DNA of 64,000 bases from an uncultured Mycoplasma sp. (GCA_946554525.1 CAMNSE010000006.1:7435-71434); one strand, 5' to 3'; shown: positions 32,805 through 42,540, numbered from the stretch's first letter. Translations and numbers: made by a program. Notes: generated from the sequence alone by a model not told the origin.

Positions 32805-32832
32805 TTGACAAAATAGAAAAAATGTGTATAAT
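32805..32832 (+). promoter_or_regulatory. sigma-A-type promoter heading the SipW locus (-35 TTGACA, 16-nt spacer, -10 TATAAT)
   Basis: Consensus hexamers ~55 nt upstream of the 32889 start. Confidence 0.6.
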
Positions 32833-32888
32833 AGCATGGCAAAAGCAGACATTTTATAACAAATTTCTGCAAAGGAAGGGTTGATTAT

Positions 32889-34640
32889 ATGCGTAAGTAT
32901 ACTGGAAAACGTGAGCATAAAAAGAGTCACAAATTAAGAAACAGTATTATTTTGACAGCGCTTGCAGGGCTTTTCATTTTTGGAATGACTAAATGTTATT
33001 TTGATAAGCGTGCAAAAGAAGATAGAGAAAAAAGAATTGAAATTATGAGAGAGGAAGCTCTTAAAAAGTTTAGAGATAAGTTTAAAGATTTTGATGATTT
33101 AAATCCATCATTTACACCAGAGCCAAGTATGGGTCCAATCATGACTCCAAGTGCAGAACCTAGTGTAACTGGTATTCCAAGCCCAAGTCCAGCACCTAGT
33201 GCGACTTCGCATCCAAGTGCTACACCAGTTACAAGACCAACATCAAGCCCAACACTTATTGTCTCACCGAGTGCAGTGCCTAGTGCTTCACCAAGTGTAA
33301 CTGGTATTCCAAGCCCAAGTGCAGCACCTATTGCGACTCCGCATCCAAGTGCTACACCAAGCCCAGCACCAAGTGCCTCACCGAGTCCAGCGCCTAGTGC
33401 AAGCACATCACCAAGTCCAGCACCTAGTGCTTCACCGAGTCCAGCTCCACCAGTTGATATATCATTAATTAGTCCAAGCCCATCACCAAGTCCAGCACCT
33501 AGTGCAAAGCCAACTCCAGCGCCAACACCAAGACCACACTACCATAGTTTTGGAGAATGGTATTCAATTAATGATGAAGAAGAACAAAGAAAATGTTCTT
33601 GTGGAAAAGTTGAAAAAAGAGCGCATAAATATGAAGTTATTTCAACAAGTAAAGGAACCTCCAATAAAAATGGTACTCATAGAATTGTAATTACAAAAGA
33701 GTGTGTTAATTGTAAACACAAGATTAACGAGGCAAAAACAATAGATTGTACTTATGGTTCATTACAACATGATGAAGACCATGAATATAAATTATGTACC
33801 GAATGTGGATATGAATTAAATTTAGGAGCACATAAATTTAAAGTTATTTCAACATCAAATGCTAAATCAAATAAAAATGGTACTCACAGTGTTACAGTTA
33901 CTAAAGAATGTACTAGCTGTAAATATAAATTTAGTGAAACCAAAACAATAGATTGTACTTATGGATCTTTATTATTTGATAAAGACCATGAATACAAGTT
34001 ATGTACTGAATGTGGATATGAATTAGATTTAGGTGGACATACTTTAAAAACTGAAGTTTCTTACGAAGCTGCTGATGGGAAGCACCATACTGTAATTACA
34101 GATATTCATTGTACTACTTGTGATTACAAGGATAGCAATAGAGAAAGAGAGTCGTGTACTACAAATGGTGGTCTAATTTGGCACAATAATGATGAGAACG
34201 AATACAAAGAATGCGAACATTGTCATCAAGAAGTAATAGTAGGAACACACTCTTATGGAAAACCAGAAAATAATGAAGCCGGATTCAAAGTAGAGTCATG
34301 TACTCATACTGGTTGTGGTTATGAAAAAGCTCATCATCATCAAGCTGAACTAACTCCTGGTGACTATACCTCAATTGATGATAGTTATCATTATGAAATA
34401 ACTAGTTGTGAAACTTGTGGAGATGTACTTTTAAGAGAAAAAACTGAACATAGTTATTATACAGATTTTGATGACCCTACTATGGGAAAAATTGAAATAT
34501 GTAGTGATTGTGGTCACAGAAAAGAAACTTACTATCCACAGCCTGACCCAGATCCAGAAGAAGATATTATTGATTTAAGTTTAGGTACTTTTGCAAGTAC
34601 AAACAATGAAGTTTACACTCTTGTTCGTAAATTATATTAA
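32889..34640 (+). CDS. membrane-anchored protein with a Pro/Ser/Ala-rich linker and tandem Cys-rich modules
   Basis: TM helix (ILTALAGLFIFGM); PSPAPSASPS low-complexity repeats; ~69-aa modules with CTECGYEL and KEC..CK Cys pairs repeated at least 4 times. Confidence 0.6.
   Translation: MRKYTGKREHKKSHKLRNSIILTALAGLFIFGMTKCYFDKRAKEDREKRIEIMREEALKKFRDKFKDFDDLNPSFTPEPSMGPIMTPSAEPSVTGIPSPSPAPSATSHPSATPVTRPTSSPTLIVSPSAVPSASPSVTGIPSPSAAPIATPHPSATPSPAPSASPSPAPSASTSPSPAPSASPSPAPPVDISLISPSPSPSPAPSAKPTPAPTPRPHYHSFGEWYSINDEEEQRKCSCGKVEKRAHKYEVISTSKGTSNKNGTHRIVITKECVNCKHKINEAKTIDCTYGSLQHDEDHEYKLCTECGYELNLGAHKFKVISTSNAKSNKNGTHSVTVTKECTSCKYKFSETKTIDCTYGSLLFDKDHEYKLCTECGYELDLGGHTLKTEVSYEAADGKHHTVITDIHCTTCDYKDSNRERESCTTNGGLIWHNNDENEYKECEHCHQEVIVGTHSYGKPENNEAGFKVESCTHTGCGYEKAHHHQAELTPGDYTSIDDSYHYEITSCETCGDVLLREKTEHSYYTDFDDPTMGKIEICSDCGHRKETYYPQPDPDPEEDIIDLSLGTFASTNNEVYTLVRKLY
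33162..33425 (+). repeat. in-frame tandem repeat, 2 x 132 bp (SVTGIPSPS.AP.ATSHPSATP units)
   Basis: Near-identical DNA units begin at 33162 and 33294. Confidence 0.7.
33621..34034 (+). repeat. in-frame tandem repeat, 2 x 207 bp encoding the Cys-rich module
   Basis: The unit starting gcgcataaatatgaagttatttcaaca recurs 207 bp downstream. Confidence 0.7.
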
Positions 34641-34648
34641 AAAAGAAA

Positions 34649-40732: not shown

Positions 40733-40737
40733 TAATT

Positions 40738-42501
40738 ATGGAAACTAAGAAAAAACAAATAAAAACTATGGTTATAACTATTTGCATTTTATTCCTAATT
40801 AGTATTTCAATTTATCCTTCTACTAATTCTAGGTATATTAAAGAAGGTGACGCTTTAGAATACAGTGCTGATTTATATAGCTTATATGCAGGATATTTTG
40901 AAAATAGTATTGATATTGTGCCTTCACTATCTACTCCGACTGAAGCATATTTTAGATTTATATTCGGGCATAATAAAGCTACTAGTGAAGTAGAAAAAGA
41001 TAGTTATCAAATAGTAATTCCTAGTGGATGCAAGTTAGATCATACTACTACTAGCCCATATTCTAGATTTGATGGTGTTGATAAATTCAATTATATACCG
41101 AGTGTTGATTATGTAAATGATTATTATACAATTCTTGGAATGACTTGCAATGTAGAACAAATAAAAAACGAAAATGAAGACCTAATTGTAAACGTTCCTA
41201 TTATAGAACAAGTTACTATTAATGGGGTTGTTGGTGTTCCATTCAAGTTTATTGATTTAAATCTTAAAAAAAGCTACCAAGAATATATTGATACTGTTAA
41301 CCCAGTTCCATCAGTTATTGAAATTGATAAATTTGATAAAGATGGCAAAGAAATAGATATTTATGAAGAGTTTATGAAATGGATTAAGAATTATGCTAAA
41401 TTATCTATTTATAATACAGATATATTAAAATATACTGAATTAGTAACTAAAGAAAACGTAACCGAAACTCCATTCCCACTAAAAGGAATAAGTAGTAGCT
41501 TTGAAAACGATACCTACACATTTAGTATTGAAGAAAACTTTATTGGATATGTAAGAACACATTCACATCACTCAAGCGTTCTTGGAACTTATATGTATTT
41601 TACTTATCAAGACAAAGAAAGTGACTTAATAAATGATACATTTAATCATTATTTAACAGCTTATGTTTATGAAGGTGAAGAAGATCCTAACTATATTAAA
41701 ATAAAGGAATATATATCAAATATGACTGATAAAGTAGGATTTAAAGCTATATTAAATGGTGAGGTAGTACCTGGATTTAAATACTTTGAAGAAGAAGGAA
41801 AAGTATTAATGTATTCACGTGTACTTGACTTTGCTGGCATTAATATTAATGATTACACTACAAAAATTGAATATGAAACAGCACTTTTAATGAATCAAAA
41901 ATATCAAGAAAGCTTAGAAGTATTTAATAAAATTCATGATATTTTATCAGAAGAAGGTGTTACTTACTTAAAAACTTATACCAAATTAAGAAATTCCGTT
42001 TTAACTAATAATGATACCAAAGGATATACAGGATATAATGATCCTAAAATATCATTTACAGATTATCATTTATATTATGATAAAGTAAAAGGCCAATACA
42101 TATTCTTTAGAGTATCATCTGACGTTCAAGAAAATGCTGAAACAAACTACAATTTAATTACATTTGATACATACACTGCAAGTGAATCACATAAAATTGT
42201 GTTCCAAAATAAAGTTGAAAATGATAAAAATATGCTAGTAATGCAAATAAGAGATGAACAAGCTGAACTTGTAGAAGAAACAATGGAATTTTTAAAAGAA
42301 TATTTTGGTGTAGATATTGAATTTACAACTGGTGAAAAAGATGGTTTATTTATTGCTACTGGTACAATTGAAAAAGGAATTATTTCAAATATTGTTGTTG
42401 AAGAACCACCTGTAGTAGAGGAAGGAAAAATAGAAGAAGAAAAAACTGAAACTTCTAATAAATCTGAAGAAAACGAAAATACAGCTGAAATAACAGAATA
42501 A
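40738..42501 (+). CDS. secreted or membrane-anchored protein (587 aa) with an acidic C-terminus
   Basis: N-terminal hydrophobic helix (MVITICILFLISISIY) then PSTNSRY; no recognised domains; last gene of the locus. Confidence 0.5.
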   Translation: METKKKQIKTMVITICILFLISISIYPSTNSRYIKEGDALEYSADLYSLYAGYFENSIDIVPSLSTPTEAYFRFIFGHNKATSEVEKDSYQIVIPSGCKLDHTTTSPYSRFDGVDKFNYIPSVDYVNDYYTILGMTCNVEQIKNENEDLIVNVPIIEQVTINGVVGVPFKFIDLNLKKSYQEYIDTVNPVPSVIEIDKFDKDGKEIDIYEEFMKWIKNYAKLSIYNTDILKYTELVTKENVTETPFPLKGISSSFENDTYTFSIEENFIGYVRTHSHHSSVLGTYMYFTYQDKESDLINDTFNHYLTAYVYEGEEDPNYIKIKEYISNMTDKVGFKAILNGEVVPGFKYFEEEGKVLMYSRVLDFAGININDYTTKIEYETALLMNQKYQESLEVFNKIHDILSEEGVTYLKTYTKLRNSVLTNNDTKGYTGYNDPKISFTDYHLYYDKVKGQYIFFRVSSDVQENAETNYNLITFDTYTASESHKIVFQNKVENDKNMLVMQIRDEQAELVEETMEFLKEYFGVDIEFTTGEKDGLFIATGTIEKGIISNIVVEEPPVVEEGKIEEEKTETSNKSEENENTAEITE

Positions 42502-42502
42502 A

Positions 42503-42540
42503 AAAAGAATTTATAATTTTATAAATTCTTTTTTATTTGT
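42503..42540. terminator. bidirectional intrinsic terminator between convergent genes
   Basis: aaagaatttataa-tt-ttataaattcttt perfect inverted repeat flanked by A-runs and T-runs. Confidence 0.8.

Follow-up and report, generated by a model that had tools for sequence, protein, structure and literature searches.

A locus of seven co-directional genes (G1 to G7, + strand, 32889-42501), located in a 64,000-nucleotide stretch of an uncultured Mycoplasma sp. (GCA_946554525.1 CAMNSE010000006.1:7435-71434; hereafter the window), probably encodes a sortase-independent, SipW-dependent surface fibre built of TasA-like β-sandwich subunits. The open reading frames (ORFs) lie between a perfect sigma-70 promoter and a hairpin terminator (Table 1) and encode a Cys-rich protein (G1), two SipW-type signal peptidases (G2 and G5, referred to as S1 and S2), the putative major subunit (G3), a stalk protein with a subunit-like C-terminus (G4), a short subunit-like protein (G6) and an orphan protein (G7). 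In the comparison of genomes the corresponding classes are labelled C (G1), S (G2 and G5), P (P-major, G3, and P-short, G6), AP (G4) and T (G7). A first-pass annotation of the window had reported the seven genes with their promoter and bounding terminators, the two SipW-type peptidases with K/S/T-rich tails and the Cys-rich repeat membrane protein, all of which were borne out by the results given below.

A subunit domain in three copies

G3 matches no Pfam or NCBIfam model, and both phmmer and profile searches of the PDB sequences were empty. A word-indexed search retrieved 51 homologues, all unannotated, and the profile of the family reaches 7,210 cluster representatives (50% identity) at E<=1e-3 and 2,105 at E<=1e-30. 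As judged by these searches, G3 belongs to a very large, unannotated family that has neither a Pfam nor an NCBIfam model. T26, A28, K29, Y30, A41, V43, A44, A87, P88, G89, E103, W200, D221, T222 and Q256 are invariant in 147 sequences of the family, and conservation peaks at the end of the signal peptide and in the first ~20 mature residues (KY...D.ARVAKW). This mature N-terminus is a candidate donor strand; TasA-like proteins are reported to be similarly conserved at their interface (PMC10151520). That the family would consist of secreted enzymes or toxins (e.g. camelysin-type proteases), with G4 and G7 as substrates or partners, is highly improbable: the TasA family was historically filed as Peptidase_M73, which is the name of PF12389, but neither PF12389 nor any catalytic family is matched, and the invariant residues include no His or Cys, hence no typical His-based metal-binding site.

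The domain recurs twice in the locus. G3 aligned with residues 773-831 of G4 by BLASTP (E 1e-5), and iterated hidden Markov models (HMMs) stretched the matches over the whole domain, both for the C-terminal domain of G4 (G4-C, E 4.5e-27) and for G6 (E 1.5e-26). The paralogues were also compared by hhalign, each through a set of 37 sequences that was defined by position and had no overlap with the others; the disjoint profiles aligned P-major with G4-C at a probability of 97.5 (E 6e-12) and with the G6 class at 95.8 (E 7e-9). G4-C carries the motifs IIAPG, WKW and DTLIGN together with an internal copy of the YAxY (YAVY...) donor-strand region, and the APG, W-x-W and DT-L/I-GN motifs are recognisable in G4 by eye. 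Taken together, these comparisons identify G3, G6 and G4-C as three paralogous copies of one domain. Among the related loci described below, L012, L014, L018, L019 and L020 show further variation, i.e. tandem duplicates of the major-subunit gene occur in several species (e.g. 377+377 and 234+234 amino acids (aa)) and some major subunits are lengthened to 340-400 aa.

Fold of the putative major subunit

AlphaFold2 models of G3 reached a predicted local distance difference test score (pLDDT) of 75 with 41 sequences and of 84 with 147 sequences, the latter with a predicted template modelling score (pTM) of 0.74. Both models comprise the signal helix, a low-confidence linker located exactly at residues 26-30, and a β-sandwich with two long helices. 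In Foldseek searches of the PDB, the TasA fibre subunit (PDB code: 8aur_A) ranked first with both models (E 8e-4, prob 0.97 with the first; E 2e-4, prob 0.99 with the second). The next specific matches were TLP-1a/b (PDB codes: 9ikj, 9ikk) and the Sulfolobus thread subunit (PDB code: 7pnb), and the Fim, Foc, Csu and CS20 pilins ranked lower. All of these proteins, the pilins included, polymerise via N-terminal donor-strand exchange (PMC9674648, PMC11494351, PMC9715654). The modelled fold thus favours a TasA-like filament subunit, as a remote relative.

Two SipW-type peptidases and a shared signal motif

S1 and S2 score 97.2 and 79.6 bits, respectively, with TIGR02228 (archaeal/endoplasmic reticulum-type signal peptidase I), well over its curated cut-off of 51.85. 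With the Bacillus SipW equivalog NF046067 they score 110.5 and 83.4 bits, both under the 190-bit cut-off. By these scores the two proteins are of the same enzyme type as Bacillus SipW, yet not its orthologues. S1 and S2 are 32% identical and carry the motifs SGSME / THRI / KGDNN and SGSME / THRI / KGDHN, respectively; SGSME, THRI and KGDxN are kept in both peptidase classes across 74 sequences, and their Ser, His and Asp are presumably the catalytic residues, as in SipW. Each peptidase has two hydrophobic transmembrane (TM) segments, one N-terminal and one C-terminal, the second of which is followed by a K/S/T-rich cytoplasmic tail (117 aa and K/S/T/N-rich in S2). Identity amounts to 61% within the S1 class, 48% within the S2 class and 29% between the classes, and 72 of the 74 sequences have their nearest neighbour within their own class. 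S1 and S2 are ancient, distinct paralogues. An ordinary S26 signal peptidase I is encoded elsewhere in the window (8144-8626, + strand; PF10502, 1.7e-39), which implies that S1 and S2 are extra, specialised copies.

Directly after the second TM segment a cytoplasmic motif is kept, ER-x-E-F-L-E-Y-K in S1 and E-K-E-F-x-E-F in S2, and variable tails follow. Besides its proteolytic activity, SipW of B. subtilis contributes to biofilm formation in a non-proteolytic manner through its C-terminal tail, and this second function may be relevant to the post-TM motif of S1 and S2.

The putative substrates of the two peptidases share a motif, T-x-[AS]/[KR]-[YF] (the slash marks the predicted cleavage), which follows the hydrophobic segment and conforms to the -3/-1 rule. 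It reads SGTYA/KY in G3, VTYS/KY in G6, STNS/RY in G7 and SCTS/RF in G4. Of the P, T and AP proteins, 78%, 63% and 34%, respectively, have the strict form, [STC]x[AS][KR][YF] past a hydrophobic stretch, as compared to 1% of 689 other ORFs, where the six exceptions resemble further cassette members. The N-terminal motif is specific to the cassette and common to G3, G6 and G7, and probably, in less strict form, to G4. The residue at -1 is an invariant Ala in P-major, whereas it is Ser in 35 of 37 P-short, 28 of 34 G7-class and 34 of 35 G4-class proteins; this difference may reflect a split of labour between the two peptidases.

The predicted stalk protein G4 and the flanking proteins G1 and G7

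G4 contains three Cadherin-like repeats (PF12733, 105.6 bits, 1.8e-30). Of the Big_2 and cadherin-like make-up that the first-pass annotation had ascribed to this 956-aa protein, the cadherin-like part was upheld, whereas Big_2 (PF02368) stays below threshold (17.2 vs 22.8 bits), although it exceeds it in the homologue of locus L025 (108 bits). Members of the G4 family have 0-6 Cadherin-like repeats and/or Big_2 repeats, placed after a conserved N-terminal region and ahead of the subunit domain at the C-terminus; these repeats would form a stalk whose length varies between homologues. G4 has the lipobox I36-T37-S38-C39 with an uncharged h-region. A lipobox (PROSITE-style pattern [LVI][ASTVI][GAS]C) is found in 39 of 47 (83%) G4-family members and in 3% of other ORFs; because of the ITSC sequence and its occurrence in most of the family, the simplest reading of G4 is that of a lipoprotein, and we predict that it is a lipid-anchored stalk.

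G1 has a positively charged N-terminus, a TM/anchor segment, a ~170-aa P/S/A-rich linker and extracytoplasmic Cys/His-rich repeats with 29 His and with 23 Cys arranged in periodic CxxC pairs. It is predicted to be membrane- or lipid-anchored; 14 of 41 homologues have a lipobox. No Pfam or PDB match was obtained for G1, and no Pfam domain was found in nine members of its family, which is present in 42 loci, invariably as the first gene of the cassette.

G7 occupies the opposite end; its family is likewise present in 42 loci and is invariably the last. G7 shares with the P subunits only its first ~30 residues; the strand-like N-terminus is followed by an unrelated ~500-aa orphan body, in which C98 and C137 are invariant, and by an acidic tail. 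The family evolves fast, with ~23% identity between species, and two of three large G7 homologue searches returned only three near-identical proteins. There was no PDB match for G7 and no Pfam match in 35 members of the family.

Conservation of the cassette

One genome per species was scanned with the N-terminal pattern of the family, which yielded 463 relatives. Among the best 77 loci, the carriers classified as Bacilli are often labelled Tenericutes, Mycoplasma or Erysipelotrichaceae, and those classified as Clostridia are labelled Oscillospiraceae or Ruminococcus. Of 84 loci, 82 contain SipW-type genes. In uncultured Bacilli, 37 non-redundant loci show the order S-P-AP-S-P, with a G7-class gene next in 33 and a G1-class gene before in 30, so that the linkage of these genes in relatives, on which the first-pass annotation had staked its proposal, is upheld; the recurrence of the same gene order in 37 loci of other genomes places the arrangement beyond chance. 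Locus L009 has all seven genes in order, with a G3 homologue of 39% identity.

The 37 loci also agree in the surroundings of the major-subunit gene. The intergenic gaps on both sides of P-major are ~100 nucleotides (nt) long, as compared to medians of 7-17 nt at the other junctions, and an equivalent (z<-2) of the double hairpin that lies 3' of G3 is present in 33 of them. Such gaps together with a hairpin after P-major suit a subunit that is made in excess. The double hairpin is a candidate attenuator or mRNA stabiliser, which would raise the output of the major subunit over that of the downstream genes.

A different reading of the locus is that it encodes non-polymerising surface or cell-wall proteins (adhesins, envelope proteins) which share dedicated peptidases, the subunit domain being an ordinary β-sandwich module. 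We consider this unlikely on four grounds: (i) the specific top Foldseek matches are all donor-strand filament subunits; (ii) the mature N-terminus is the conservation peak, which is unusual in a plain secreted domain; (iii) the long gaps and the 3' hairpin single out one of the paralogues, as would be the case for a dominant subunit; and (iv) the likeness of G7 to the subunits is confined to the N-terminal strand, which is hard to explain without an interaction mediated by the N-terminus.

Besides the full cassette, variants of it were encountered. In Clostridia (Oscillospiraceae, Ruminococcus; L005, L007, L034, L042, L049, L057, L065, L077, L080 and L086) the order is S-P-P(~300 aa)-S-P(~170 aa)-x, after which giant Flg_new-repeat proteins of 1,372-2,815 aa are encoded, and in some of these loci a helix-turn-helix or GerE-type regulator is encoded upstream. 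Separate small modules encode one subunit (214-243 aa), a short SipW-type protein (172-176 aa) and a large protein (900-1,100 aa), and three loci have a third SipW-type gene, located after that of the G7 class (these two observations come from L030, L055, L059 and L064, and also from L050, L062 and L069); at least two of the modules, L030 and L064, come from a metagenome-assembled genome (MAG) which also bears a full cassette elsewhere (L016, L028). Stand-alone genes of the TasA/CalY family itself were met on 129 Bacillus plasmids. The eight that were fetched (L088-L095, from B. cereus-group plasmids) are 35-39% identical to TasA and have no sipW annotated within 2.5 kb; some of the plasmid genes adjoin an S8 peptidase gene or hfq, and several bear the erroneous annotation 'cell division protein FtsN'.

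A model of fibre assembly and its weighing

We propose a model of the fibre by analogy with TasA/TapA (PMC9674648, PMC10151520) and BsaA (PMC11580942). The subunits would be exported by Sec and remain tethered via their signal peptides until S1 and S2 cut them at T-x-[AS]/[KR]-[YF]. The freed N-terminal strand (KY...ARVAKW) would then enter the β-sheet of a neighbouring subunit, i.e. donor-strand exchange would take place as in TasA and BsaA. The shaft would consist of G3, which would be produced in excess, and G6 would serve as an adaptor. G7, with a donor-type N-terminus and no acceptor domain, could be a TapA-like initiator or a distal cap. G4 would combine a lipid anchor, an immunoglobulin (Ig)-like stalk and an acceptor domain without a free N-terminus, and would therefore end the fibre and, across the wall, hold it on the membrane; a FimH-like tip adhesin, in case G4 is cleaved, is the less likely role. 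G1 may be an accessory anchor or assembly factor.

A more far-reaching version of this model is offered tentatively, as a possibility that we hold to be doubtful. Uncultured Bacilli and Clostridia of the gut might possess a widespread and as yet undescribed class of Gram-positive pili, of which the locus would be the type. In these pili an ordered heteropolymer (a G3 shaft, a G6 adaptor, G7 at the distal end as initiator or tip, and the G4 stalk as terminator and anchor) would be assembled neither by a chaperone-usher nor by a sortase system. Instead, assembly would be gated by two anciently diverged SipW-type peptidases that free the donor strands, one acting on the Ala(-1) shaft subunit and the other on the Ser(-1) minor subunits.

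A number of points weigh against the proposed fibre. The structural similarity of G3 to its PDB matches is remote, with TM-scores of ~0.3. PF12389 (Peptidase_M73/TasA) is not matched by G3, G6, G7 or G4-C at E<=10, nor by any of 41 members of the G3 family at E<=1. TIGR04088 also failed to match any of the 41 members at E<=1, no NCBIfam model matched G3, G6 or G7 at E<=0.1, and the profile of the G3 family found no TasA among the PDB sequences. Attempts to bridge the families by hhalign stayed short of significance, with probabilities of 4-13%; the 147-sequence G3 profile aligned with a shallow 9-sequence TasA/CalY alignment at 12.8% (E 0.002). The latter alignment comprised eight annotated TasA/CalY genes from Bacillus plasmids and a TasA sequence 100% identical to 8aur over residues 28-261. 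Its register places ISGTFA/KY on GGGTWA/AF of TasA and VVAPGT...tF on nlKPGD...F, in the same order, and GTWA/AF is the known processing site of TasA, since the mature fibre chain in the PDB starts at A28. In the monomer model of G3 the ARVAKW segment packs in cis; as TasA monomers self-complement too (PMC9674648), this packing decides neither way. Furthermore, all of the best 77 loci are in MAGs of uncultured Bacilli and Clostridia, the cleavage sites and the pairing of peptidases with substrates are predicted, polymerisation and fibre polarity are argued by analogy, and the roles assigned to individual proteins (G1, G4, G7 etc.) are held less firmly than the fibre model as a whole.

Membership of G3 in the TasA/M73 family is thus not established, and the resemblance lies at the level of fold, signal and operon. 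The first-pass annotation had attributed SipW-cognate signals to G3 and G6 and had proposed to check G3 for a TasA-like jellyroll. The former hold in the sense that the T-x-[AS]/K-Y motif is in register with the processing site of TasA, and fail as matches to TIGR04088; the latter is favoured by the TasA fibre being the top Foldseek match, and weakened by the low TM-score and by the unmatched PF12389. Its overall suggestion of a different kind of TasA-like fibre or matrix system is supported as an analogy of fold and operon, not as family membership. The double hairpin 3' of G3, the third copy of the subunit domain in G4-C, the likely lipoprotein nature of G4 and the signal motif of G7 are additions to what that annotation had described.

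Transcription signals and neighbouring features

Coordinates of the features of the locus are collected in Table 1. The promoter matches the sigma-70-type consensus at all positions and is the one such site in the window, where 0.06 would be expected. The terminator upstream of it ends the preceding transcription unit and insulates the operon. The hairpin at the 3' end of G7 is a bidirectional terminator, common to G7 and to a convergent HIT gene; it was missed by the consensus scanner because its stem is nearly pure A/T and has too few G-C pairs. The G+C content is 29% in the locus and 27.7% in the window. The alternative starts of G2 and G6 given in Table 1 come from gene calls on four identical public contigs (243 aa for G2; 207 aa, MKGLL..., for G6), and both fit with the conserved N-termini of the homologues.

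Table 1 Features of the seven-gene locus; positions refer to the window and the slash marks predicted cleavage
Feature	Position	Strand	Remarks
Upstream intrinsic terminator	32747-32771 (hairpin; element to 32781)	+	9-bp stem and T-run; scanner match
Promoter TTGACA-16-TATAAT	32805-32832	+	12/12 match to sigma-70-type consensus
G1, C family	32889-34640	+	583 aa
G2, S1 peptidase	34649-35392	+	247 aa; probable start 34661 (243 aa)
Conserved post-TM motif of G2	35189-35250		aa ~181-200
G3, P-major	35502-36293	+	263 aa
Tandem double hairpin directly 3' of the G3 stop	36300-36347	+	-25.7 kcal/mol, z = -4.85
G4, AP	36378-39248	+	956 aa
G4 C-terminal domain	38673-39233	+	aa 766-952; homologous to G3
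G5, S2 peptidase	39260-40099	+	279 aa
Conserved post-TM motif of G5	39752-39815		aa ~165-185
G6, P-short	40100-40732	+	210 aa; probable start ATG 40109 (207 aa)
G7, T family	40738-42501	+	587 aa
A/T-rich hairpin terminator	42501-42540		15-bp stem, A-run and T-run flanks; -14.4 kcal/mol, z = -5.8
Predicted cleavage sites			G3 A28/K29; G6 S38/K39; G7 S31/R32; G4 CTS43/R44F (if a SipW substrate)

At a distance of 500 bp downstream, the locus is followed by a gene for a homologue of outer spore coat protein E, CotE (43012-43542, + strand; PF10628, 1.3e-46), which makes it probable that the organism is a spore-former and raises the alternative that the locus serves a spore-associated structure (coat, exosporium or appendage) instead of a vegetative pilus or biofilm fibre. 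This alternative is improbable: the flanking genes differ elsewhere (prfB/tilS in L009), so the adjacency of CotE is not conserved; the promoter is of the vegetative sigma-70-type consensus; and many carriers are, by label, Tenericutes or Mycoplasma-like Bacilli. A 450-aa protein encoded further downstream (44170-45522, + strand) has a sub-threshold transglutaminase-like core (PF01841, E 3e-4, 21.3 vs 23 bits); near a putative fibre or spore-coat locus, a transglutaminase could matter for cross-linking.

The 109-nt spacer before G3 (35393-35501, + strand) contains the short palindromes GGAAGTTATCTTCC and ATGCATAGTACTATGCAT. A spacer of ~100 nt is kept at this place in the 37 loci (median 102 nt), and an internal promoter or a regulatory site may be located within it. 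The presence of a riboswitch or of a known leader RNA was rejected, as Rfam had no match in 32700-36400 at E<=1; in the whole window a tRNA gene (48422-48495, + strand) is the sole Rfam match at the gathering threshold. Between recD2 and the upstream terminator lies a 51-aa ORF (32561-32716, + strand; MKKMMVGSVLAMAAGVGMLAYAL...) with one hydrophobic segment, which is gene-called on the identical contigs and has no Pfam match.

Implications

SipW-dependent TasA-type fibres are represented by a handful of Bacillus and Clostridium systems and archaeal relatives, and are simple matrix fibres of one or two subunits. While SipW-dependent, TasA-like donor-strand fibres as a kind of system are already known, the locus described here appears to be a new, multi-subunit, two-peptidase form with an unannotated subunit family. 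A limited literature search found no description of the G3 family, of a seven-gene cassette with two peptidases, of a subunit domain fused to a stalk, or of the G1 and G7 families. The locus indicates a far larger unannotated family (the 7,210 clusters) and a cassette conserved in dozens of uncultured gut Firmicutes of many lineages, and so suggests that a large group of Gram-positive surface filaments has gone undescribed; we know of no surface organelle in those uncultured gut lineages. If the model is true, a pilus-like, anchored, multi-subunit form would be added to the Gram-positive surface filaments, the duplication of the signal peptidases would have a reason, and G3, G4 and G7 would be candidates for roles in adhesion to the host or to particles, and in the formation of biofilms, in hard-to-culture gut Firmicutes. 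The motifs and profiles are usable to annotate thousands of hypothetical proteins.

Comparison with known systems

The tapA-sipW-tasA operon of B. subtilis resembles the locus in that a gene for an ER-type peptidase adjoins that of a ~26-kDa β-sandwich subunit, the cleavage motifs GT[WY]A/ are in register and, among PDB structures, the TasA fibre matches best. The order accessory-peptidase-subunit is also alike, G1-G2-G3 paralleling tapA-sipW-tasA with G1 at the position of tapA, and the subunit-like N-terminus of G7 on an unrelated body recalls TapA, which gives the first strand (PMC9674648, PMC10151520). In contrast to B. subtilis, there is no detectable sequence homology to TasA (PF12389 and TIGR04088 unmatched; hhalign prob 13%), and two peptidases are encoded instead of one, alongside three subunit-type domains, one of them borne by a predicted lipoprotein stalk, as well as the Cys-rich G1 as an accessory protein and the 587-aa orphan G7. 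G3 differs further in its long helices and in its W-x-W and DTLLGN motifs.

The sipW-bsaA-bsaB-bsaC operon of C. perfringens is likewise a SipW-dependent multi-protein operon of an anaerobic Firmicute, and encodes two TasA-like subunits and a larger partner (PMC11580942, PMC7395162). In the model of that system donor-strand exchange takes place at the membrane, before or around the cleavage by SipW (PMC11580942, PMC7395162). Unlike the present locus, it encodes a single peptidase and, as the large partner, a von Willebrand A protein. BsaA is set apart, by description, by a Glu-catalysed Asn-Lys isopeptide bond, whereas the G3 family has no invariant Asn (K29, E103, D221 and Q256 are invariant). 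The sipW-tasA-capP-calY locus of B. cereus provides a sortase-independent fibre of two co-assembling paralogous subunits with an accessory factor (PMC13082335); its subunits are true members of the TasA/CalY family, there is a single SipW, and a stalk-fusion protein is absent.

Donor-strand filaments of TasA-like or Ig-like subunits are also formed by the archaeal bundling pili, the Sulfolobus threads and the TLP-1 fibrils (PMC9245690, PMC9715654, PMC11494351), which differ in belonging to another domain of life or to unknown hosts, in sharing no sequence similarity with the proteins described here and in lacking a seven-gene cassette with two peptidases. The chaperone-usher pili (Fim, Pap, Csu) are, like the proposed fibre, ordered heteropolymers of paralogous Ig-like subunits with N-terminal donor strands; they have a two-domain end subunit without a free donor strand (FimH-like, cf. 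G4) and a hairpin after the major-subunit gene. They are Gram-negative and depend on a periplasmic chaperone and an outer-membrane usher, for which the tethering and cleavage of signal peptides would substitute here; the Pfam and NCBIfam scans of the seven proteins contained no PapD-like chaperone or usher family.

A sortase pilus was considered for the locus and rejected, as none of the seven proteins has an [LIS]PxTG-like motif and their Pfam and NCBIfam scans contained no sortase family. The likeness to sortase pili and fibrillar (stalk) adhesins lies in the logic of tip, shaft and base, and in a stalk of Ig-like repeats whose copy number varies between species, as in G4; in contrast to sortase pili, anchoring via an N-terminal lipid would replace the linkage to the cell wall.

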